A stretch of 64,000 nucleotides of DNA from Spirochaetia bacterium (lineage in GTDB: Bacteria; Spirochaetota; Spirochaetia; SZUA-6; Bin103). Within the stretch, counting starts at the first letter, position 1, and each line of letters starts with the position of its first letter. Shown in pieces: positions 7,463 to 48,419 of this stretch. The translations under genes were made by a program, and so were the position numbers. The notes beneath the pieces are model-generated. The model ran no database searches. It was not told the DNA's origin and saw nothing but the letters and a program-made list of their open reading frames with translations. The stretch is from contig CBDAOI010000004.1 of NCBI GenBank assembly GCA_965198005.1, positions 2,126,763 through 2,190,762 on the forward strand, given 5' to 3'.

Positions 7463-7535
7463 AGCCAGAAAGGGGATTCGAACCCCTGACCTGTTCATTA
7501 CGAGTGAACCGCTCTGCCAACTGAGCTATTCTGGC
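7463..7535 (-). tRNA. tRNA-Thr (anticodon CGU)
   Basis: Cloverleaf folded by hand: 7-bp acceptor stem GCCAGAA/UUCUGGC, D-arm GCUC-AGUUGGCA-GAGC, anticodon loop CUCGUAA, T-arm AGGGG-UUCGAAU-CCCCU. CCA is not encoded. Confidence 0.85.
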
Positions 7536-13849: not shown

Positions 13850-15121
13850 ATGACCGCGACGCTGTTCCGGCTGGCCGTGCGCAATCTCGGCCGCCACCGC
13901 CGCCGCACGTTGATAACCGCCGCGGCGCTGGCGGCCGGGATCGCGCTGTTCATCTTCATGGATTCGATGCTGCGCGGGATGGACTCCGAGTCGCAGCGCA
14001 ACCTGGTGTGGTACGAGACCGGCTCCGGCCGCATCGTCGGCCGCGCGCAGCACGCCGAGCTGGAGCGGCCGGCCCTGAAACACGAGATCGTCGAGTATCG
14101 GCCGCTGCTCGCCGCGCTGGCGGAGCGCGGAGTGGCCGCGGCCCCCCGCATCCGTTTCACCGGCGAGCTGTTCTTCGGCGAGGGCTCGCTGCCGGTGCGC
14201 CTGGTGGGCATCGACCCGGCGCTCGATCCCGAGGTGTTCCGGCTGCCCGGAAGCGTGCTGCCCGGAGGTGGGTACCTTGAGAGCGGCGTTCCGGGGCTGC
14301 TGCTCGGCGCCTGGATGGCCGAGGACCTGCAGATCGCCGTGGGCGACTTCGTCGAGGTGCGGACCCGTACCCGCCATGGCGCGGTGCAGACCCTGGAGCT
14401 GGAGCTGGTGGGCATCCTGCGCAGCCCGAACCCCACCATCAACCGGGGAGTGGGCTTCCTGCCCCTCGACGTCGCCCAGCTCGACCTCGACCTGGAGGGG
14501 GTAACGGAAATCTCTCTCGGCGCGCTGCGCACCCGGCTCGGACGTCCCGTCCCGGTGCCGGTGGGGGCGACCCTGGAACGCGAGGTTCAGCGCCTGAACG
14601 AGGACCTGGCAACCGCCTTCCCGGGCGTGGTGGCGGTGGGCTGGACCGAGCTGGCGCGGGACTACCTGGCGGTGTTGGAGACGGACAGCGCGGGCACCAG
14701 CATCATGCTGCTCCTGGTGTTTCTGATCGCCGCGGTGGGCGTGTCCAACACCATGCTGATCGCGGTGTACGAACGGATCCGTGAGTTCGGGACGATGCGT
14801 GCGCTGGGCATGGACGACGGTGCGATTCGCGCCACGATGGTGCTGGAGGCGGGAGCGATCGGTCTGCTGGGGTCGCTGGCGGGGGTGGCAGTGGGCGCCG
14901 TCGCAACCTGGTGGCTGGTGAACTGGGGCATCGACATGAGCGGAATGTACGGCGACGTAAGCGTCGGCTACCGGGTGACCGGGATCTTCCGCGGTGCCTG
15001 GAATCCGGGGACCATGGTGGCGGCGGTGATCTTCGGGATTGCGGCCAGCATGGCGATCGCGCTGCTGCCGGCGCGCCGGGCGCTCAAGCTCGACGTCGCG
15101 CAGTGTCTGCGCCACGAGTAG
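13850..15121 (+). CDS. ABC transporter permease, FtsX/MacB-type, copy 3 (paralog of copy 1)
   Basis: The N-terminus LAVRNLGRHRRRTLITAAALA...FIFMDSMLRGMDSESQRNLVWYETGSGRIV and the C-terminus ARRALKLDVAQCLRHE closely parallel copy 1. Confidence 0.85.
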   Translation: MTATLFRLAVRNLGRHRRRTLITAAALAAGIALFIFMDSMLRGMDSESQRNLVWYETGSGRIVGRAQHAELERPALKHEIVEYRPLLAALAERGVAAAPRIRFTGELFFGEGSLPVRLVGIDPALDPEVFRLPGSVLPGGGYLESGVPGLLLGAWMAEDLQIAVGDFVEVRTRTRHGAVQTLELELVGILRSPNPTINRGVGFLPLDVAQLDLDLEGVTEISLGALRTRLGRPVPVPVGATLEREVQRLNEDLATAFPGVVAVGWTELARDYLAVLETDSAGTSIMLLLVFLIAAVGVSNTMLIAVYERIREFGTMRALGMDDGAIRATMVLEAGAIGLLGSLAGVAVGAVATWWLVNWGIDMSGMYGDVSVGYRVTGIFRGAWNPGTMVAAVIFGIAASMAIALLPARRALKLDVAQCLRHE

Positions 15122-15177
15122 CGGCCAGGTTGGACGGCCCGCGACCGGATCGAGTACCTTTCCGGAGGGGGTGGTTG

Positions 15178-15933
15178 ATGATGAAGACTCGGCGATGCGC
15201 GCGCGGCGGAATGCTGCTGTCGCTGGTGTTTCTGACCGGCGCCGTACCGCTCGGCGCTCTGACCGGAGCGGAGGTGATCCAGCAGATGGAGCGCAATGAG
15301 CGCCATTCCTCGGTGCACTCCACCGGCGCGCTGGAGATCAGCGACCGGTTCGGAACCCGCACCAAGACCTTCATCTCGACCGCGGTGGGCGACGACCGCT
15401 CATTGCTGGAGTTCACCAACCCGGAGGAAGCGGGACAGAAGATCCTGCGCCTGGACGACGATCTCTATCTCTACTTTCCGGAGGCGGAAGAGGTGATCCA
15501 TCTGCAGGGCGCGGCACTGCGCGAGAACGTCCTCGGGTCCGACTTCTCGTACGAGGACATGACCGGAGAGGGCAGCCTGCTGGAAGACTACCAGGTGGAA
15601 CTGGAGGGCACCGAGCCGATCGACGGTCACGACTGTTACCGGCTGCGGCTCACCGCCACCCGGCGCGACGTGGTGTATCCGATCCAGGTGGTGTGGATCG
15701 ACGCCGAGCGGTTCGTCACGCGCCGCGTGGAGCAGTTTTCCCGGCGCGGCCGGCCGCTCAAGCAGATGACGATCTCCGACTACCGCGAAGTGGGCGACAA
15801 GCTGATTCCGGTGCGGCTGGAGATGTCGGATCTGATGAAGAAGGACTCGCGCACGATGTTCCTGATCGAGACCATCGAGGTGGACATCGCGATCGACGAG
15901 AGTCTGTTCTCGCTGGAGGAGCTGACCTTTTGA
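15178..15933 (+). CDS. LolA-like outer-membrane lipoprotein-sorting protein family (putative)
   Basis: Signal peptide MMKTRRCARGGMLLSLVFLTGAVPLGA. Mature domain of about 220 aa with LolA-like (half-barrel) family features. It immediately follows the Lol-like ABC genes. Confidence 0.6.
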   Translation: MMKTRRCARGGMLLSLVFLTGAVPLGALTGAEVIQQMERNERHSSVHSTGALEISDRFGTRTKTFISTAVGDDRSLLEFTNPEEAGQKILRLDDDLYLYFPEAEEVIHLQGAALRENVLGSDFSYEDMTGEGSLLEDYQVELEGTEPIDGHDCYRLRLTATRRDVVYPIQVVWIDAERFVTRRVEQFSRRGRPLKQMTISDYREVGDKLIPVRLEMSDLMKKDSRTMFLIETIEVDIAIDESLFSLEELTF

Positions 15934-17075
15934 GCGCGCTGGCGGGCGGGCGGGCGGTGGCGGCGCTGCTGCTGGGCCTGCTGGCGGCGGCGTCCGCGAG
16001 CGCTGATCTGCGTACCGTCGTGACGGTGGAGGCGCGCCTGACCGGGCTGTCCGACCCGGGCGGCGTACCGCTGCTCGTCGGCGGCGGCAGCGCCCGCCTC
16101 GATCTGGCAGCGACCGGCAACCGCAACGTGCGCGGCCAGCTCAGCCTGAGCGCCGAGCTGCGGCGTACGGAGGACGCGGCCGGGGCGCCAGCCGCGGTCG
16201 AGGTGGAGCGCGCCTTTGTGCGCGCCCGGCTGCCCGGGTTCCGCCTCACCGCGGGCAAGACCCGTCTGGCCTGGGGCCGGGGCCGGTTGTTCAACGCCGG
16301 CGACATCCTGTTCGGGCAACGGCCGGCGTTCGCGGCCGGCGCCGGCGAGTTCCTCACGGCCGCCGACTGGCTGGTGGCCGCCTACGTGCCGTTGGGCCGG
16401 CTGTCGTTCCTGGAACTGGTCGCGTTGCCGCCGCTCGACCCGTTCACCATCGACCGCACCGACGCCGGCGGCCGCCTCCTGCTACGGCTGGGAGAGCTGA
16501 CCGTGGAGAGCGGCTACCTGTACGCAGCCGCGCGCGCGGCCGCGGCGCAGGCGCGGGAGCGGGAGCACCGCGGCTACCTCAGTCTGAAGGGAGCGGCCGC
16601 CGGCATCGACTGGCATCTGAGTGCCGGCACCGCGCTGCCCGCCACTCCCGGGGCCGATCTGCGCCGGGCGGCCGAGCAGCACCTGCTGCTCACCGGCGGC
16701 GGCCTCGGGTTCCTGGATCTCGGGCCGGAAGCCGGGGTCGTCATGCTGCTGCTCGAAGCGGGCGTACGGCCGTGGCGCGCGTGGCAGGACACCACTCCCC
16801 CGCCCTCCCCGACGCTCGACCACTACGGCGTGTACCTGTTTCCCGAAGTGGGCTACAGCCCCGCCGACGGCTTGAACCTGTCGCTGAGCGGCGTGCTGTC
16901 TCCGATCGACAGCTCGGGGGTCGCCGCCGCCGGCGCCTCCTGGAACATCCTGCAGGGACTGACCCTGGGGCTGTACACTTCGGTGACGTATGGCCACGCC
17001 GACGCCACCTTCGCCTGGGAGCGCCCGGGCGGACTGGCCGCTACCCTGCTCGCCCGCTACGTATTCGGCTCGTGA
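15930..17075 (+). CDS. secreted hypothetical protein (possible outer-membrane protein)
   Basis: The TTG start overlaps the upstream stop (TTTTGA). Signal peptide LSALAGGRAVAALLLGLLAAASASA. Gly/Ala-rich beta-type sequence ending YVFGS. Confidence 0.45.
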   Translation: MSALAGGRAVAALLLGLLAAASASADLRTVVTVEARLTGLSDPGGVPLLVGGGSARLDLAATGNRNVRGQLSLSAELRRTEDAAGAPAAVEVERAFVRARLPGFRLTAGKTRLAWGRGRLFNAGDILFGQRPAFAAGAGEFLTAADWLVAAYVPLGRLSFLELVALPPLDPFTIDRTDAGGRLLLRLGELTVESGYLYAAARAAAAQAREREHRGYLSLKGAAAGIDWHLSAGTALPATPGADLRRAAEQHLLLTGGGLGFLDLGPEAGVVMLLLEAGVRPWRAWQDTTPPPSPTLDHYGVYLFPEVGYSPADGLNLSLSGVLSPIDSSGVAAAGASWNILQGLTLGLYTSVTYGHADATFAWERPGGLAATLLARYVFGS

Positions 17076-17111
17076 TGAGACCGCCGCACGTGATCTCGGG
17101 TATACTGCGGC

Positions 17112-17429
17112 ATGCTGCACGTAATCGTCACCATGCACGTCAAGCCGGGCCGTCTCGAGGAATTCCTGGTGCTGGCGCGCGCACTCGGAAAGCTGGCCGA
17201 GGCCGAAGCAGGCTGCGTGCGTTACCAGTACACGGTTGACACCCCCTCGCCGCTCTCGATTCAGGATCCGGTAGACCCCCACCGGGTGACGCTGATCGAG
17301 CAATGGGAGTCCCCCGCGACGCTGGCCACGCATCTTCAGGCACCACACATGAAGCAGTACGGGCCGCCCATGAACGAACTGCGTACCGGCGGCCTCACCG
17401 CCCGCGTCACCCGCCCGATCGACTCCTGA
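17112..17429 (+). CDS. antibiotic biosynthesis monooxygenase (ABM) family protein / putative quinol monooxygenase
   Basis: 105 aa with the ABM ferredoxin-like signature: ...V.V.PG..EEF......L......E.GC..Y......P......E.W.S..A...H. Confidence 0.65.
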   Translation: MLHVIVTMHVKPGRLEEFLVLARALGKLAEAEAGCVRYQYTVDTPSPLSIQDPVDPHRVTLIEQWESPATLATHLQAPHMKQYGPPMNELRTGGLTARVTRPIDS

Positions 17430-17512
17430 GAGATTCGCCGGCCGCGCGCGCCCAACCCTCCGCCAGGGTACGACTGCGCCAACTGGCGGAACGCGTTGCC
17501 GGCGGCTATCTC

Positions 17513-17905
17513 ATGCTGCTCCGCGTGAGCGCCGTGGTGCTGATCGTGGCCGCGGCCGCGGCCGTGTGCGGGCTCATCATCGCCACGCCCTTGTGGCTGT
17601 TCGCGACTCGGGCCACCGCCTCTTACAACGTGTTCGTCGCGGTCGTCGCGGTCGCCGCGCTGGGCGGGACGCTGGCTGTGCGCCTGGCGCGCCGTACGCG
17701 CCAGGCGCACAGCGGCCGCCGCGCATTGGTTTCCGGAGCGCAGGTCCTGGCCCGCACGGTCGCGGCGATCGCAATTGCCTGCGCGCATCTGCTGGCCTTC
17801 ACCCGCTGGGGGTTGATCGCTGGACTGGTGGGCCTGCCGGTCACGCTCGGGGTGCTCGGGGTGCTCCTGTTCGGGGGCCGCCGTCCGCGCTCCGAGTCGT
17901 TCTGA
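17513..17905 (+). CDS. hypothetical membrane protein
   Basis: Four predicted TM helices with Ala/Leu/Val-rich segments. The function is not recognised. Confidence 0.35.
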   Translation: MLLRVSAVVLIVAAAAAVCGLIIATPLWLFATRATASYNVFVAVVAVAALGGTLAVRLARRTRQAHSGRRALVSGAQVLARTVAAIAIACAHLLAFTRWGLIAGLVGLPVTLGVLGVLLFGGRRPRSESF

Positions 17906-17924
17906 GAAATCTGAGAATACTGCT

Positions 17925-17955
17925 TGAACGCTTATCGGAATGTTCGGTATAATCG
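17925..17955 (+). promoter_or_regulatory. near-consensus sigma70-type promoter TTGAAC-N18-TATAAT
   Basis: Read directly in an intergenic region of reduced GC. There is no ORF with a Shine-Dalgarno downstream before the terminator. Confidence 0.45.
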
Positions 17956-17959
17956 CTGG

Positions 17960-18150
17960 TGACGAGCCGGAGGAGCGGTGGTGGTGCACTCGGCGGGTTC
18001 CGGGAAAGCCCACATCGTTGCTTCAGGTTTCGTCCATGCTGTCGATAATTAGGGTGTCGGTAACAGCTATAGTTCCCCTCCCAGTTTACTATACTGATGT
18101 GCCGGCACCCGAAAGGGTAGGTCGGTCCCGTCCCGGGGCCGACCTTTTTT
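17960..18150 (+). ncRNA. candidate small RNA or cis-regulatory leader (about 190 nt) ending in an intrinsic terminator, immediately upstream of PBP1A
   Basis: Promoter at 17925-17955. Terminator at 18120-18150: an 11-bp stem GGTCGGTCCCG/CGGGGCCGACC with a 3-nt loop and TTTTTTATT. Only a short poor-quality ORF lies between them. The RNA family could not be identified. Confidence 0.35.
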
Positions 18151-18190
18151 ATTGCCGCTGCCACCGGCTCGGGCGCCCGGCAGGAGCGCT

Positions 18191-20692
18191 GTGCGCGTGA
18201 CGCGTTCGCCGTGGCGGGTGGTGGTGTTCGCCGCCTGCACGCTCGCAGCCGCCGGGGTGGGCGCACTGCTCGGGCTTGCGCTCGCCACCACGTCCAACAT
18301 TCGCGGCCTCGACGAACCGGACCGGCCGGCGCTGCCGGCCCGGATTCTGGACCGGCACGGCCGGTTGATCACGGAGTTCTTTCGCGACGAAAAGCGGGAG
18401 ATCATTCGCATCGAGGAGATCCCGCCACACTTGGTCCACGCACTGCTGACCCGCGAAGACCGCCACTTCTTCCGGCATCGCGGGTTCCGGATTCCCGACA
18501 TCGTTCGCGCTGCCTGGCATCTGGCAACCGGCCAGTTTCGCTCCGGGGCCTCCACCATTACCCAACAACTGGCCGGTTCCCTGTATGCCGACCGTAGCGA
18601 ATTCTCGATTCGGCGCAAGCTGGTCGAGCTGTGGTGGGCCATTCAACTGGAGCGCTGGCTGACCAAGAACGAGATCCTGGAGCGCTATCTCAATCTGGTG
18701 TACTTCGGGAAAGGCACGCACGGCGTGGAGGCCGCTTCCCAGTTCTACTTCAAGCACTCGGCGCGCGAGGTGACCCTGGCCGAAAGCGCGATGCTGGTCA
18801 TCCAGCTCAACCGGCCCGGCGGAAACTCACCCATCAACTACCCGAACCGGGCCCGGCCACTGCAACTGGAGATTCTGAATCAGATGGTCGACCTGGGTTA
18901 CGCCACGCGCGAACGGGCGGAGCTGTCCTTTCAACAGTATTGGGACAGCTACGACTTCACGCGGTCGAACCAGGCCACGGCGTTTGTCGAACGTGAGGAC
19001 GCCGCTCCCTACTTCAGCGAGTACGTCCGCCAGCAGCTTGACGAGTTGCTGCTGGGGTCGATGGACGTCTACGAAGAGGGATTGATCGTGCACACCACGC
19101 TCGACCTGGACTACCAGCGGGCCGCCCGCGGCACCCTCGCCCGCCACCTGCGGCGCGTCAACGACACCCGTGCCGCTCAAGCCGGCAGCCGGCTCAGGAC
19201 CGCCGACCGCAGCTTTCTGCCGGTGCTCGACCTGCTGTCGCTCACCTTCAACGTCGAACAGATCCGTATCGCCGGCGTACGCGAACGCAAACAGGGTGTC
19301 GCCCGATTCGTCGATGGTATGGCGCCGACCCTCGACCTGCTCGGCATGATGCTGAACGCGGACGAACTGCGGTTCGTCTCTCAGGTCGCCTACCAGCGCG
19401 GCGAGCGGGACGCGCAGCGCACTCAGGTTGAGGCTGCGCTGGTGTCGCTCGATCCACGCACCGGCCACATCCTGGCCATGGTGGGTGGGAGCAAGTTCGA
19501 GACCGGCAACCAGTTCAACCGCGCCACCCAGGCGAAGCTGCAGCCGGGATCCGCCTTCAAGCCGTTGTACTACTCGGCAGCGATCAGTTCACGCCGCTTT
19601 ACGCCCGCGTCGATGATCCTCGACGCGCCGGTCGTGTTCCGCAACGACGACGGCACCAACTACATTCCCTTGAACTACAAGGGCGAGTGGCAGGGGCGCG
19701 TCCTGTTGCGCCGGGCGCTGGCGAAGTCAATGAACGTTCCGTCGCTCAAGGTGCTCGACGAGATCGGTTTCGACGCCGCGATCGACCGTGCCAGCCGCAT
19801 GCTCGGGATCACCGACCCGGAACAAGTCGAAGCCACGTTCCCGCGCAAGTACCCACTCGGGCTTGGCGTGATCGCCGTCTCGCCGCTGCAGATGGCGCGC
19901 GCCTACGCCACCTTCGCCAACCAGGGCAAGGCGGTGACCCCGCTGGCGATTCAGTACATTGCCGATCGCCACGGCCGGGTGCTGCTGGAGGTGGAAAAGG
20001 AACTGCGCGCGCGGCAGAAGCTGGATCAGGACGAGTTGAGAATCATGACCCCGCAGGTGGCCTATATCATGACCGACATTCTCCGGAGCACCGTGGAGTG
20101 GGGTACGCTGCGCTGGGCGCGTGAACAGGCGGGAGGCTTCGACACCGCCATCGCCGGCAAGACCGGGACCACGCAGAACTGGTCGGATGCCTGGACCGTC
20201 GGCTTCAATCCCCGGGTCGTCACCGCGCTCTGGATGGGGTTCGATGAACGCGGAGAGACGTTGGGATTGTCGCTCACCGGCGCCACCGCCACGGGGCCGG
20301 CGTGGGCGCAGTACATGAAGGCGATCCAGCCGCAGGGAAACCTGCGGTTCAGTCGCCCCGACACCGGCTTGATCGAAGTCACCGTGAACGCCCGTTCGGG
20401 CCTGCTGCCCGCGGGCACCCCCGGCGAGGAGATAATTACGGAACTGTTTCTGATCGGCACCGATCCCAAGGAGCGTGACGCCTTGGCGAGTCTCGAAACC
20501 GCCCGGCGGGAAACCGTCAAGCAGAACATTCGCAACGCGTTGCTCACGATCGATCTCGGCCCCGCGCCTCGAATCGAGCCCGTGGCGCTTCCGGCCGGGG
20601 TGGCGACGGCGCTCCCGTCAAGTGGTACATTGGACCAGGGAGCCGGCACCCCGGCACCGGCCCGGCCGGGGTCCAATCCCCTGATCGACTGA
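18191..20692 (+). CDS. mrcA: penicillin-binding protein 1A (class A PBP: glycosyltransferase + transpeptidase)
   Basis: GT51 motifs (EDRHFF.H.G, RKL.E) are present. Transpeptidase motifs are SAFK (active-site SxxK), SMN and KTGT. GTG start after AGGAG. Confidence 0.9.
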   Translation: MRVTRSPWRVVVFAACTLAAAGVGALLGLALATTSNIRGLDEPDRPALPARILDRHGRLITEFFRDEKREIIRIEEIPPHLVHALLTREDRHFFRHRGFRIPDIVRAAWHLATGQFRSGASTITQQLAGSLYADRSEFSIRRKLVELWWAIQLERWLTKNEILERYLNLVYFGKGTHGVEAASQFYFKHSAREVTLAESAMLVIQLNRPGGNSPINYPNRARPLQLEILNQMVDLGYATRERAELSFQQYWDSYDFTRSNQATAFVEREDAAPYFSEYVRQQLDELLLGSMDVYEEGLIVHTTLDLDYQRAARGTLARHLRRVNDTRAAQAGSRLRTADRSFLPVLDLLSLTFNVEQIRIAGVRERKQGVARFVDGMAPTLDLLGMMLNADELRFVSQVAYQRGERDAQRTQVEAALVSLDPRTGHILAMVGGSKFETGNQFNRATQAKLQPGSAFKPLYYSAAISSRRFTPASMILDAPVVFRNDDGTNYIPLNYKGEWQGRVLLRRALAKSMNVPSLKVLDEIGFDAAIDRASRMLGITDPEQVEATFPRKYPLGLGVIAVSPLQMARAYATFANQGKAVTPLAIQYIADRHGRVLLEVEKELRARQKLDQDELRIMTPQVAYIMTDILRSTVEWGTLRWAREQAGGFDTAIAGKTGTTQNWSDAWTVGFNPRVVTALWMGFDERGETLGLSLTGATATGPAWAQYMKAIQPQGNLRFSRPDTGLIEVTVNARSGLLPAGTPGEEIITELFLIGTDPKERDALASLETARRETVKQNIRNALLTIDLGPAPRIEPVALPAGVATALPSSGTLDQGAGTPAPARPGSNPLID

Positions 20693-20703
20693 TCGAGCAT
20701 CGT

Positions 20704-21102
20704 ATGGAACTGCGCTACACACACGATCATCAATGGGTCCGGCACGACGGGTCGGCGCCGGCCATGCCCATGCAAGTCACCGTGGGCCTGTCCGACTTCG
20801 CCCAACAGGAGTTGGGAGAGATCGCACATCTCGATCTGCCCCGGGTGGGCGCCCGGGTCGAACGCGGTCAGGTGGTGTGCGCAATCGAATCGCTGAAGTC
20901 GGCCAGCGAGCTGTATGCTCCGGCAACCGGCGTGGTAGTGGCTGCCAACCGGGATCTGACGACCGCCGCGGGGCGCACCCTGATCAATCGGGACCCGCTC
21001 GGGGCGGGCTGGATCTTCCGGCTCGAGCTGGCCGATCCCGCCGAGCTCGAGCAGCTGCTGTCGGCCCGCGACTACGCCCGCATGACGGCCTCCGAGCCGT
21101 AG
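20704..21102 (+). CDS. gcvH: glycine cleavage system protein H
   Basis: Lipoyl-lysine motif IESLKSASELYAP, WIF near the C-terminus, 132 aa. Confidence 0.85.
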   Translation: MELRYTHDHQWVRHDGSAPAMPMQVTVGLSDFAQQELGEIAHLDLPRVGARVERGQVVCAIESLKSASELYAPATGVVVAANRDLTTAAGRTLINRDPLGAGWIFRLELADPAELEQLLSARDYARMTASEP

Positions 21103-21111
21103 GCGCCGGCA

Positions 21112-21551
21112 TGAGCGGTCCCGTCCTGTCGGTCCCCATCGGCTCGATCGTGGTGGGTAAGCGCATCCGCATCGATCTCGGCGATCTGGCACCGCTCATG
21201 GACAGTCTGCGCACCCATGGCCAGCTCAGCCCGATTCTGCTTACCCATGATCTGGAGCTGATCGCCGGCCACCGCCGGCTGGAGTCGGCGCGCCGCCTCG
21301 GCTGGACCAGCATCGACGCGATCCTGATGGACGACGTGGGCGAGTTGCGGGCGCTCGAGCTCGAGATCGAAGAGAATCTGCAGCGGCGCCAGCTCAGCGA
21401 GGAGGAACTGGCCGCGGCGCTCATCCGCCTGGATGGACTGAAACGGGGAAGCTGGCCGCGGCGTGTGCTGCGCGGCCTTGGCGCGGTGTTCGGCCCGTGG
21501 CTCGAGGCCATGCGGCGCAGCCTGCGGCGGCTCCGGCGGCGGCGCGGCTGA
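21112..21551 (+). CDS. ParB-like nuclease domain protein (ParB/Srx N-terminal domain only)
   Basis: Motif I..HGQLSPIL and LIAGHRRLESARRLG (ParB box II GxRR). No HTH or dimerisation domain. Followed by an Arg-rich tail. Confidence 0.6.
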
Positions 21552-21567
21552 CCCGGTGCCGCGCCGG

Positions 21568-23274
21568 TCAGCGGCCGACACCGTGCAGGAGCTGCTCCCG
21601 CGTAACCGTCAACCAGAGCGGCCGCCCGTGCGGGCAATGCTGGAGGTCGATGGCGAACGAACGCCGCAGGATCTCGCGCGCGGCGCCTGCGTCCAGCACT
21701 TCGCCATCCTTGACCGCCAGCTTGCAGGCCACGTTCGCGAACGCCGCGCGTTGCAGGTCGGCAGTGACACCGCGCAGTCCCGCTACGTGGGCGGCCAGCC
21801 AGTCGGCCGGGAGCTGGTGCAACGGTTCCGCCAGGGCCACGATCCGCGCCGACCTCCCCTCCCCGGCCGCCGCTTCCACCACGATGCCGAGCTCCTCCAG
21901 CCGCGCGCAGGCCGCCTGCAGCGCCTCGACCTCGTCCTGGTTCAACTCCAACTCGATCGGCAGCAGCAGCCGTTGGATCGGAAACGCACGCCGGCACAGG
22001 TCCTCGTACAGGACCCGTTCGTGGGCCGCGTGCTGATCGACGAAGTACAGCTTCCCGCCGATCTCCACCAGCAGGAACACGCCCAGCGCCTGCCCGAGGT
22101 AGTGCAGGTCGTCACCGGCGGTCTCCGGCGGCTCGGCGGCGAACGCCGCCGGTACGGCGGGCGCACCCGATACGGCGGGCGCAGCCGCCGGTTCCGGCGC
22201 GGGGCGCGCGGGCGCGGCCGCCGGGGGCGGTGCACCCGCGGGCGCGGGGCTGAAGCTCGCGCGCGCCCCCGGGGCCGCCAGCGGCGACCGGTTCCCGAAC
22301 CGGGGAGTCAGCTCCTGCGCGACGCGCGCCACCGCCTGATGCAGCGGCGGCAGATGCCGAAACCGGACTTCGCGCTTGGCGGGATGGACGTTGAAGTCCA
22401 CCAGGTGGGGAACGATCTCCACGAACAGGCACGCGACCGGATGGCGGCCGCCCGGCACGATCCCGGCGTAGCCGTACTCGACCGCCTGCAGCAGCGCGTA
22501 CTCCTGGATCCGGCGCCGGTTGACGAACACCTGCAGCCGGGTGCGATCGCGGCCGGCCAGCTCGGGGCGGGCGCCGATGACCGTGATCGCGAAGTCGGCG
22601 AAGGTGCGTTCCGCGCTGGCCAGGTCACCGGGATCGACGCGGTTGCCCAGCGCGTCCGCTACCCGCTGCAGCGGCGTGGTGGCAGGCAACACCAGGCTCA
22701 CCGCGCCATCCGCCGCGAACCGAAAGGTCACCTGCGGATGGGCGAGAGCCTTCTCCAGCATTGCGCGCCGGCACATCGCGGTCTCGGCACCGGGACGACG
22801 CAGGAACCGCCGGCGCGCGGGCAGATCCGCGAACAACCGGGTCACCTGCACCCGCGTACCCGCGGCCGCGGGGACACTGCCGATCCGGCGCCGCGCACCG
22901 GCAGCCACCAGCCGCGACGCGTGCGCCGCATCCGCGCTGCGCGTGGTCAACTCCAGCCGCGCGCAGGCTGCAATGCTGGCCAGTGCCTCGCCGCGAAACC
23001 CCAGCGTGGTGAGGCGCTCCAGATCGTGCTCGGTGGAGATCTTGGAGGTGGCGTGGCGCAGGGCAACCCGCTCGAGGTCGGCGCGGGCGATGCCGTGCCC
23101 GTCGTCGCGGACCGCCACCAGCCCGAGCCCGCCCGACTCCACCTCCACCTCGATCCGACCGGCACCGGCGTCGAGCGCGTTGTCCAGCAGCTCGCGCACG
23201 ATCGAGTACGGCCGGTCGATGACCTCGCCGGCGGCTATTATCCCCGCAACCTGCTGGTCGAGGAGCCGAATCAC
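21568..23274 (-). CDS. mutL: DNA mismatch repair protein MutL
   Basis: GHKL ATPase N-terminus IAAGEVIDRP, ELLDNALDAGA and DDGHGI. The C-terminal dimerisation domain is present. Confidence 0.92.
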   Translation of the reverse strand: MIRLLDQQVAGIIAAGEVIDRPYSIVRELLDNALDAGAGRIEVEVESGGLGLVAVRDDGHGIARADLERVALRHATSKISTEHDLERLTTLGFRGEALASIAACARLELTTRSADAAHASRLVAAGARRRIGSVPAAAGTRVQVTRLFADLPARRRFLRRPGAETAMCRRAMLEKALAHPQVTFRFAADGAVSLVLPATTPLQRVADALGNRVDPGDLASAERTFADFAITVIGARPELAGRDRTRLQVFVNRRRIQEYALLQAVEYGYAGIVPGGRHPVACLFVEIVPHLVDFNVHPAKREVRFRHLPPLHQAVARVAQELTPRFGNRSPLAAPGARASFSPAPAGAPPPAAAPARPAPEPAAAPAVSGAPAVPAAFAAEPPETAGDDLHYLGQALGVFLLVEIGGKLYFVDQHAAHERVLYEDLCRRAFPIQRLLLPIELELNQDEVEALQAACARLEELGIVVEAAAGEGRSARIVALAEPLHQLPADWLAAHVAGLRGVTADLQRAAFANVACKLAVKDGEVLDAGAAREILRRSFAIDLQHCPHGRPLWLTVTREQLLHGVGR

Positions 23275-46540: not shown

Positions 46541-48283
46541 TTACGCCGCGGCCGCCGGCTCGGCCGTTCCCAGCCGCACCAACGCGTGCTGCCGCCGCGT
46601 GGTGGCGAGCCGCTGCAGCACGATCACCGGCAGCACGCCGATCGCCACGATCAACAATGCCAGCACCGCGGACTCGGCCACCATCTCGTTGCTCGCCAGC
46701 CGGAATACCCGCGTCGCCAGGGTCTCCAGATTGAACGGGCGCAGGATCATGGTCAGCGGCAATTCCTTGAGCATGTCCACCACCAGCAGCACCGCGGCGC
46801 TGATCAGGGCCGGCCGCAGGTTGGGGATCCCCACCCGCAGCAGGGCTTGGCGCGGGCGCAGGCCGGACGCGCGCGCCACCTCGTCGAAACGGGTCGTCAC
46901 GCGGCAGAAGCCGGAGTCGATGGTGTGGTAGCCCACGGCAAAGAAGCGCACCACGTAGGCCGCCAACAGCGCGGCCACGCCGCCGGTGATGATCAGTCCC
47001 GGCGACATTCCGAACAGCCAGCGGGCAGCCGCGATCAGGCGGTGATCGACCCACGTATAGGCGGTCGCGATGCCGACGGCGAGCACCGCGGCCGGAATCG
47101 CGTAGCCGACCGTGGCGAGCCGCGCCATCGACGAAACCCAGGGCCCGGACCGCAGGCGCGCCGCGTACGCCACCGTTACCGCCAGGACGATGATCATCAG
47201 CGCGGCGCCGGCGGCCAGACCGACGCTGGCGCCCAGCGCAGCGAGCGTCTGCGGGCGCAACAACTGCCCGGGGGCCGCCGCCGCCCACCAGAAGAGCTGC
47301 GCGACCGGCACCGCGAATCCCAGCAGCACCGGGGCGGCGCACGCCAGCGTGGCGCCGGCGGCCGCCCGCCCGCGCAGCCGTTGGCGCAGCAACGGCCGTT
47401 CCACCAGGCCGGGGGCGTGGTACCGGGCCCGGCGCCGCTGCCAGCACTCGCCGAAAACGATCAGTCCCACCACCAGCAGCAGCACCGCGGACAGGGCCAG
47501 CGCGGCCTGCACGTTGCCCAGCGCAAACCAGGCGCGAAAGATGCCGATGGTGAGGGTGTCCACCCCGAAGTAGTGCGCGGCACCGAACTCGCCCAGCGTC
47601 TCCATCGCGACCAGCATCACGCCGGCGACGATGGCCGGCCGCGCCAGCGGCAGCACCGCCCCGAAGAAGGTGCCGGTGGCCGAGTAGCCCGCGCCGCGCG
47701 CCAGCTCCAGCAACGCCGCGCTCTGGCGCGCGAACACCGCGCGCGCGGTGAGGTACACGTACGGGTAGACGGTGAACGCGAGCACGCAGCTCAACCCGAC
47801 CGGATTCTGGATATCCACGGTCGGGTAGGTTCCCGGAGCCAGCTTCAGGGTGTTGCGCAGGAACAACTGAACCGGTCCGGTGAAGTCGACCAGCCCCACG
47901 TACGCGAACGCCGCGATGTAGGTGGGCAGCGCCAGCGGCAGCACCAGCAGCCAGCTCAGCGCCGCACGCCCCGGGAACTGGAACGCGGTCGTCAGCCACG
48001 CCGTCGCCACGCCGATCAGCCCGGCCAGCGCGGCTACCACCACCACCAGCGTCACCGTGTTGAACAGGTAGCGCAGCAGCACCGTCTGCGCCAAGTGGCG
48101 GACTTCCTCGCCGCCCAGGGCAGTCACGTGCGCCGCCACCACCAGCAGGGGAACGCCGATCAGCCCGGCCAGGAGCGCCGGGCCGAACAACCACACGCGT
48201 GAACTGGCCCGCTGCGGGACCAGGCGCCGGGCCACGGAGCGCACTGCCGCGACGCCCGACACGGCCGAAAACGTTCTAATCAT
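46541..48283 (-). CDS. iron(III) ABC transporter permease (FbpB-like, duplicated BPD domain)
   Basis: Two tandem six-TM domains, each with an EAA-like loop. Length 580 aa. Confidence 0.85.
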   Translation of the reverse strand: MIRTFSAVSGVAAVRSVARRLVPQRASSRVWLFGPALLAGLIGVPLLVVAAHVTALGGEEVRHLAQTVLLRYLFNTVTLVVVVAALAGLIGVATAWLTTAFQFPGRAALSWLLVLPLALPTYIAAFAYVGLVDFTGPVQLFLRNTLKLAPGTYPTVDIQNPVGLSCVLAFTVYPYVYLTARAVFARQSAALLELARGAGYSATGTFFGAVLPLARPAIVAGVMLVAMETLGEFGAAHYFGVDTLTIGIFRAWFALGNVQAALALSAVLLLVVGLIVFGECWQRRRARYHAPGLVERPLLRQRLRGRAAAGATLACAAPVLLGFAVPVAQLFWWAAAAPGQLLRPQTLAALGASVGLAAGAALMIIVLAVTVAYAARLRSGPWVSSMARLATVGYAIPAAVLAVGIATAYTWVDHRLIAAARWLFGMSPGLIITGGVAALLAAYVVRFFAVGYHTIDSGFCRVTTRFDEVARASGLRPRQALLRVGIPNLRPALISAAVLLVVDMLKELPLTMILRPFNLETLATRVFRLASNEMVAESAVLALLIVAIGVLPVIVLQRLATTRRQHALVRLGTAEPAAAA

Positions 48284-48419
48284 CCGAATTCATCCAAATT
48301 CATCCGAATCCTGGTGAATAGTCATGAAGATGGATTAACTATGTCAAGTCCAATGAATAAGTCGAACGGATATTTATCGAATTTATCGAATTTATCGGCT
48401 GTTGGTGGCTCTCCCGGCC
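48284..48419. promoter_or_regulatory. AT-rich promoter/operator region with two sets of short tandem repeats upstream of the iron ABC operon
   Basis: CATCCGAATTCATCCAAATTCATCCGAAT at 48283-48312 and ATTTATCGAATTTATCGAATTTATCGG at 48380-48406 (coordinates approximate). The minus strand reads GATAAATTCGATAAATTCGATAAAT, which resembles Fur-box hexamers. Confidence 0.45.

Follow-up and report, generated by a model that had tools for sequence, protein, structure and literature searches.

What kind of element occupies the spacer ahead of the PBP1A gene in this spirochaete? The stretch of DNA analysed here (hereafter the window, 64 kb in its entirety) is attributed by the homologues of its PBP1A to an uncultured lineage of high-GC Spirochaetota, and a preliminary description had drawn attention to a spacer of reduced GC content immediately upstream of that gene. 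The dip is real, with GC values of 0.49-0.59 over positions 17850-18150 compared with 0.70-0.78 in the flanks. That description saw in the spacer a unit of ~190 nt, running from a sigma-70-like promoter to an intrinsic terminator without a credible open reading frame, and entertained two interpretations: an independent small RNA of 6S-like size, or a conditional attenuator or riboswitch controlling PBP1A. Much of the anatomy stands. The promoter, TTGAAC-N18-TATAAT, exists and matches consensus at 10/12 positions in a scan, although it had been placed 1-2 nt away from its true position. The terminator is likewise present, with the 3-nt loop ascribed to it, but its stem has 12 pairs (nine of them G-C, over 18119-18145) rather than 11, and its coordinates too needed a shift of 1-2 nt; the sequence following the stem is TTTTTTATT.

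The absence of a credible reading frame is also borne out. An 86-aa mechanical ORF can be drawn over 17940-18200 but is not conserved, being broken by indels in close relatives, for example by a deletion of ~43 nt in locus L081. In addition, the conserved part of the region evolves by compensatory base-pair changes. A non-coding promoter-to-terminator unit is present and 'independent small RNA' was the right category for it. What the earlier account did not see is that only the 3' ~100 nt of the unit are conserved and that a sigma-28-type promoter box, overlooked at the time, lies with them. That a genuine, independent sRNA gene resides at the coordinates given for its core in Table 1 seems to us very highly probable. 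The PBP1A gene beyond it most likely starts with the GTG listed there, as judged from the 831-aa length of the identical database protein; this codon lies ~45 nt past the U-tract of the terminator and is preceded by a GGAG at 18183-18186.

Table 1. Features of the sRNA locus and its downstream neighbour, in window coordinates
Feature	Position	Strand	Basis and remarks
P1, sigma-70-like promoter	17924..17953	+	TTGAAC (17924-17929), N18, TATAAT (17948-17953); consensus scan, conservation in the clade; probable
5' extension hairpin of the long isoform	17961..18034	+	MFE fold; lineage-specific, sequence not conserved
P2, predicted sigma-28 (FliA)-type promoter	18022..18048	+	TTCAG (18022-26), 14-nt spacer, -10 block GTCGATAA (18041-18048)
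Core small RNA, ~98 nt	18054..18151	+	R2 cmsearch 64.3 bits, E = 4.5e-11; R1 40.3 bits; TSS predicted at 18054 +/- 2; 3' end in U-tract
SL1, long hairpin	18056..18106	+	Basal helix GUCGG / CCGRC, apical helix CUAUAG / CUAUAC... region; family alignment
CCCCUCCCA 9-mer, putative seed, anti-Shine-Dalgarno-like	18075..18083	+	In the 14-nt apical loop of SL1 (18074-18087)
SL2, short hairpin of CCCG-AAA-GGGU type	18107..18118	+	4 pairs, all compensatory, 87% paired
SL3, intrinsic terminator	18119..18151	+	12-bp stem, 3-nt loop, U6; scan; 99.8% paired in family
PBP1A gene (transglycosylase + transpeptidase)	18197..20692	+	ORF list; P0001 100% identical, 831 aa; Pfam PF00912, PF00905; neighbour, outside the RNA

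The comparison drew on 80 PBP1A loci taken from species genomes. Using blastn, only the 3' half of the ~190-nt unit (approximately 18040-18107) was seen to recur ahead of PBP1A, in many loci of spirochaetes, so that conservation upstream of PBP1A orthologues holds for the core, where it is accompanied by covariation. The aligned upstream regions share one design: a block of the form ...TTAA(A/G)...N...GCCGATAAT... precedes a GUCGG hairpin with the loop (U)CCCCUCCCA, after which come a short second hairpin and a GC-rich terminator hairpin with its T-run. When 25 sequences were folded individually the same three hairpins were obtained in each; SL2 is absent from the predicted folds of a few members. 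Folding energies are -87.9 kcal/mol for the RNA 17960-18152 (z = -4.9) and -45.6 kcal/mol for the core 18056-18152 (z = -6.3), and the MFE structure of the latter is the consensus structure of the family.

Plain MAFFT alignment followed by RNAalifold did not yield a good consensus, SL1 being variable in length. A covariance model, R1, was instead built from a five-sequence, hand-annotated seed and realigned with Infernal. Its search returned 30 matches, one per locus, among them 18054-18153 of the window, while the search with a second model, R2, returned 95 members among 100 sources, again with one copy per locus. As these alignments were fitted to the models the level of pairing is somewhat inflated, at 91.7% of cells for R1 (74.2% when shuffled) and 93.3% for the 93 distinct sequences of R2 (76.7% when shuffled, with 0/500 shuffles as high). 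Compensatory changes are seen in 23/25 pairs with R1 and in 24/25 with R2. Covariation scores of 0.53 and 0.485, respectively, fall to 0.04-0.07 and 0.036-0.059 when pairing partners are slid along the alignment, and these controls, along with the number of pair types, strongly argue for a real structure despite the model-fitted alignments. Hairpin by hairpin, the basal helix of SL1 is paired in 88.8% of cells and the apical helix in 97.2%, with compensatory changes in 15/15 pairs, and SL3 shows them in 5/6 modelled pairs and is always followed by the T-run. The alignment also contains 64 G.U cells and 11 A.C cells, an asymmetry to be expected of an RNA read from the + strand. Judged by these matches the family is widespread in Spirochaetia, being found in Treponema and in uncultured Spirochaetaceae/Spirochaetales, and it is represented in Treponema of the termite gut and rumen as well as in high-GC environmental Spirochaetota.

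Could this nevertheless be a known RNA? It is not 6S-like: there is no 6S match to the element even at E <= 10, and, where 6S RNA is a rod of ~180 nt with a central bubble, the conserved unit has ~98 nt and forms three separate hairpins. Nor does the element belong, at gathering score, to any other family in a covariance search of Rfam, riboswitches included. At that score the whole window and nine member loci yielded only tRNA-Thr; the gene in the window, tRNA-Thr (CGU) at 7463-7535 on the minus strand, is the sole Rfam or ARAGORN match in the 64 kb. Relaxing the search of the element to E <= 10 produced only weak matches driven by its terminator or loop (ar14, SorX/SorY), and it matched no riboswitch or leader family in Rfam. 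The best near-match is ar14, through the C-rich loop and the terminator; it scores 21.4 bits, where the gathering score is 58.8, and neither 6C nor RsaE figures among the sub-threshold matches. By covariance score, then, the RNA is outside the 6C, RsaE and ar14 families. A blastn search against plasmids gave no match, and we found no description of the RNA in the literature on sRNAs of spirochaetes, Treponema in particular, and on sigma-28; neither Rfam 15 nor the literature searched contains a conserved sigma-28-dependent sRNA for the spirochaete phylum. It is a new RNA family of a known kind, the sigma-factor-controlled sRNA with a C-rich seed.

The sigma factor in question is suggested by the sequence immediately before the RNA. 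The sigma-28 (FliA/SigD) consensus is TAAA-N15-GCCGATAA. In an ungapped family logo aligned at the 5' end of the RNA, TTAA(A/G) occupies -33 to -29 and gCCGATAaT occupies -13 to -5, with ~0 bits at -23 to -14 in the spacer, so that the two blocks read TTAA(A/G)-N15-GCCGATAA. The CGATA positions carry 1.4-1.9 bits each, their C, G, A and A being invariant in 25 loci, and the -35 and -10 blocks are best spaced at 15 nt in 48 members, at 16 nt in 38 and at 14 nt in 14. For an independent test of the promoter, metagenome contigs were scanned with a 22-nt pattern from the SL1 apex, which is free of promoter bases, and members with enough upstream sequence were scored over the 12 positions of TAAA-N14-16-GCCGATAA. 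A score of at least 9/12 was attained by 98/100 members, whereas among 4449 control windows drawn from these loci the share was only 5.5%; five chance matches to the pattern scored 6-7 on this scale. In the window the -10 block matches GCCGATAA at 7/8 positions and the -35 block is weak (TCAG for TAAA, 2/4, with a 14-nt spacer). Its overall 9/12 is a score that 5.5% of the controls also reach, so that for the window itself the sigma-28 call depends on the box being positionally homologous to that of the family.

Two other readings of the CGATAAT block were considered and rejected. As a sigma-70 -10 box it is less apt than as part of a sigma-28 promoter, which the block and TTAA at N15 fit, and it cannot be the 5' arm of a hairpin (CCGA...UCGG) because the covariation partner of GUCGG is the CCGAC further downstream, the pair becoming ACCGG/CCGGU in L027 and L042, for instance. 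On the strength of the promoter sequences we consider it likely that sigma-28 drives the family, with a transcription start predicted, from the position of P2, at the foot of SL1.

Several observations touching on this promoter class may be recorded here. A further GCCGATAA, at 48392-48399 on the minus strand of the window, was discarded as a sigma-28-type promoter since it is part of a tandem repeat. The minus-strand region 48290-48400 comprises two triple tandem repeats, TTCGATAAA x3 and GAATTYGGATG x3, upstream of an ABC-permease-like ORF (46541..48283, minus strand), and may be a regulator-binding array; the TTCGATAAA repeat contains the only other GYCGATAW match in the window. Using tblastn with approximate queries, a FliA-like sigma-factor ORF was tentatively identified in L039 (13421-14068, minus strand), ~5 kb away from its sRNA; the only other finds, equally tentative, were fragments resembling FliA in L112 and flagellin in L150 (7985-8359, minus strand).

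The sigma-70-like promoter P1 has a narrower distribution. It is the only such site within 16500-19500, where shuffled sequences average 0.3, and it is kept in 8/8 loci of the high-GC clade to which the window belongs (the window plus seven loci with PBP1A 60-85% identical to its own), in the form TTGAAC or TTGACC, N17-18, then TATAMT or TATGCT, with TATnnT invariant. From most other lineages it is absent; there the preceding gene runs up to the sRNA promoter, so that no space is left for it. Within the clade P1 is probably a real second promoter, giving a longer isoform of ~190 nt. The segment between P1 and P2 varies from ~22 to 110 nt among clade members and, by eye, only basal pairing of the 5' extension seems to be kept. 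The extension is not a conserved functional RNA.

The most conserved part of the RNA itself is its apical loop. CCCTCCC is found there in 25/25 loci and CCCTCCCA in 26/26, the sole variant encountered being UCCCUCCCA in L012, with U for C at position 1 of the 9-mer. This 9-mer is unpaired in all individual folds, and outside it the remaining RNA sequence covaries or drifts. Its complement, UGGGAGGGG, is a strong Shine-Dalgarno-like sequence. A scan of 2.5 Mb of spirochaete loci for stretches of 7 nt or more that are complementary to the loop and close to a start codon revealed no recurrent gene family.

Individual complementary sites do occur. In the window, a TetR-like ORF has GGGAGGGGA 7 nt ahead of its ATG (55720, minus strand), and an ORF starting with TTG has TGGGAGGGG 5 nt ahead of it (63135, plus strand); as we estimate that ~4 such 9-mers are expected by chance in a GC-rich 64-kb window, these are mere candidates. 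Elsewhere, reverse-strand matches to the 22-nt pattern turned out to be ribosome-binding sites of the form TGGGAGGGGAACTATG (L102 ~1802, L129 ~97, L154 ~1270, L194 ~1959, L116, L172 and L179). These belong to unrelated genes, several of them M23-peptidase-like, and have full complementarity to the sRNA loop and adjacent stem, which could be a chance convergence of stop codon, strong Shine-Dalgarno sequence and start codon.

The neighbours of the sRNA gene are of interest for what they reveal about its independence. In the 43 metagenome loci that extend at least 1.5 kb downstream, the next gene is PBP1A in 21 and a different gene in 22, examples being a PEGA/TM protein gene in termite-gut Treponema and genes on the opposite strand. 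In the spirochaete genomes the element stands directly upstream of PBP1A in 25 of the 42 loci with upstream sequence and, in one further locus (L019), 2.2 kb away with an MCP gene between the two; within 6 kb of PBP1A it was not found in 16 spirochaete PBP1A loci. A commoner neighbour than PBP1A is a gene for a PEGA-domain protein, which lies upstream in most lineages. An unrelated small membrane protein takes this place in the window's clade, where the RNA is still kept. The RNA is therefore retained while the genes on both sides change, and it possesses its own promoter and its own intrinsic terminator without a conserved ORF, as an sRNA gene should. Its conserved position beside the PEGA and PBP1A genes could nonetheless reflect a role in cis.

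Some further features of these neighbourhoods deserve mention. The TAA stop of the upstream PEGA gene lies inside the sRNA -35 block TTAA(A/G) in L127, L134, L152, L117 and L126, ~45-60 nt upstream of the loop, and in those loci the sRNA is a 3'-UTR-embedded unit with its own promoter, one that probably shares its terminator with the PEGA gene. Homologues of the upstream PEGA protein were sought and only unnamed metagenomic proteins matched, none of them from T. denticola or T. pallidum. Within the window's clade (14900-21600 of the window; L081, L082 and L204-L207) the order is TP_0789-like gene, unknown ~420-aa protein, ABM monooxygenase, (DHDPS), the small membrane protein, which has no Pfam match, then sRNA, PBP1A, GcvH and a ParB_N protein, with MutL following on the opposite strand.

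The interpretation we favour, to which we would assign a probability of about 0.6 on sequence grounds, is that of a trans-acting sRNA which belongs to the late-flagellar (FliA) regulon and pairs, through its C-rich loop, with ribosome-binding sites rich in G. FliA would transcribe the ~98-nt RNA from P2 as part of the late flagellar regulon, and the exposed anti-Shine-Dalgarno-like loop would pair in trans with G-rich ribosome-binding regions resembling its complement. Translation of the paired mRNAs would then be repressed, after the example of 6C, RsaE/RoxS and the cuckoo RNAs; action by pairing of loop to ribosome-binding site is itself a step that we put forward tentatively. In the window's clade P1 would add the longer isoform, and in its subclade read-through of the terminator would transcribe PBP1A.

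Against a trans-acting sRNA must be set the older idea of a leader acting in cis on PBP1A, with conditional termination of the riboswitch kind. It draws on the frequent adjacency of element and PBP1A described above and on the situation in the window's subclade (window, L081, L082, L083 and L204), where the 15-50 nt between terminator and PBP1A contain no promoter-like site and a GGAG precedes the gene. In most lineages, however, including the clade loci L205, L206 and L001, PBP1A has after the terminator a promoter of its own, TTGACA-N17-TAnnnT, and in about half of the metagenome loci, as well as in L019, what follows the RNA is not PBP1A at all. The sole plausible antiterminator pairing, between the 5' arm of SL1 and the 3' arm of the terminator, is paired in 70.7% of cells compared with 73.1% after shuffling (499/500 shuffles reach the observed value) and shows no covariation. 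The conserved single-stranded part is moreover a hairpin loop, unlike the multi-helix junction or pocket typical of aptamers, and no riboswitch or leader family matches. The varied downstream genes, the separate PBP1A promoters and the lack of antiterminator covariation argue against a riboswitch or attenuator, and we regard a cis-acting leader as improbable. One element of that idea survives: since the subclade has no recognisable promoter between terminator and PBP1A, its PBP1A may be transcribed by read-through from P1 and P2, and the transcription of PBP1A in this clade becomes a question in its own right. As a separate observation, the TTGACA-N17-TAnnnT promoter ends ~7 nt before the PBP1A ATG, with no Shine-Dalgarno sequence, in L003, L004, L005, L007, L041, L205, L206 and L001, which implies leaderless PBP1A mRNAs.

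Still more improbable is that the element is just the functionless 3' UTR and terminator of the gene before it. In most lineages the upstream gene, encoding a PEGA-domain protein, does stop just short of the element and lacks its own terminator, yet a plain terminator needs neither a covarying hairpin of 50 nt, nor an invariant 9-nt loop, nor a conserved promoter box, and the RNA persists in the window's clade behind the unrelated small membrane protein gene. An element functioning as DNA, such as a palindromic operator or a recombination site, we find hardly credible: hairpins are inverted repeats in DNA too, but the excess of G.U over A.C cells favours a + strand RNA, the T-run is on one strand only with the promoter upstream in the same orientation, and conservation resides in the loop, not in the arms. 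The main rival is a protein-binding or decoy RNA, in which the C-rich loop on its long stem would be recognised by a protein (for example a KH-domain protein, an anti-Shine-Dalgarno-binding factor or another flagellar post-transcriptional regulator) that is titrated or recruited. The 9 loop nt are nearly invariant among lineages in which PBP1A identity is no more than 43-60%, as one would expect of a single partner under strong conservation. In favour of this rival, too, the start-codon scans of spirochaete loci yielded no conserved mRNA target. CsrA binding requires a GGA motif, which the loop lacks. Furthermore, the loop complement is a plausible strong Shine-Dalgarno sequence and C-rich loops are documented as base-pairing seeds (PMC6486639). 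Overall we consider protein binding rather unlikely, although distinctly less so than the other alternatives.

If the trans-acting sRNA is as we propose, what might it be for? A bolder version would see in it a pan-Spirochaetia riboregulator tied to flagellar completion and, in lineages like the window's, coupled to PBP1A through terminator read-through. Export of FlgM would activate sigma-28, the loop would silence a set of mRNAs with G-rich ribosome-binding sites, and read-through would place PBP1A, and with it peptidoglycan synthesis, under the sigma-28 and sigma-70 promoters. We judge this unlikely as a whole; if true, it would link growth of the cell wall to assembly of the periplasmic flagella, which adjoin the peptidoglycan layer. 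Post-transcriptional control of motility in spirochaetes is known mainly through CsrA/FliW, and this RNA, present in single copy and with a 9-nt seed that does not vary, is a concrete, testable candidate for a regulator of the late flagellar programme. More immediately, the annotation upstream of PBP1A is corrected to an sRNA gene, predicted to have two tandem promoters, in place of a riboswitch, and the covariance model can be used at once for annotation.

Parallels to both halves of the proposal, the C-rich seed and the flagellar promoter, exist in other bacteria. RsaE/RoxS of Firmicutes and the alpha-proteobacterial CCUCCUCCC 'cuckoo' RNAs (alpha-r14/alpha-r35) are base-pairing sRNAs with C-rich loops. 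In 6C of Actinobacteria, C-rich loops bind G-rich sites in mRNA without a chaperone (PMC6486639). Like all of these, the spirochaete RNA exposes in a hairpin loop a C-rich motif that is the complement of G-rich or Shine-Dalgarno sequences, and has an intrinsic terminator after it. It has a single C-rich loop, where 6C has several, and its promoter is of a different class from theirs. For the promoter the closest comparison is from the same phylum: the mapped sigma-28 promoter of flaB2 in T. denticola, an organism that encodes FliA and FlgM, has TTAA at -35 and CCGATAA at -10 (PMC9481697). Both blocks are the same as in the sRNA family, although the flaB2 promoter is mapped and drives a flagellin mRNA whereas the sRNA promoter is predicted and would drive a non-coding RNA. 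Sigma-28-dependent sRNAs that tune flagellar synthesis have been described in E. coli (UhpU, MotR, FliX and FlgO; PMC10578931) and in C. jejuni (CJnc170; PMC11187230). These come from other phyla and share no homology of sequence or structure with the spirochaete RNA, for which sigma-28 control is deduced from promoter sequence. The late flagellar sigma factor would be common to them and to it, and the several that are embedded in UTRs have a similar placement, since in many spirochaete lineages the -35 block of the sRNA overlaps the stop codon of the gene upstream and so puts it in a 3' UTR.
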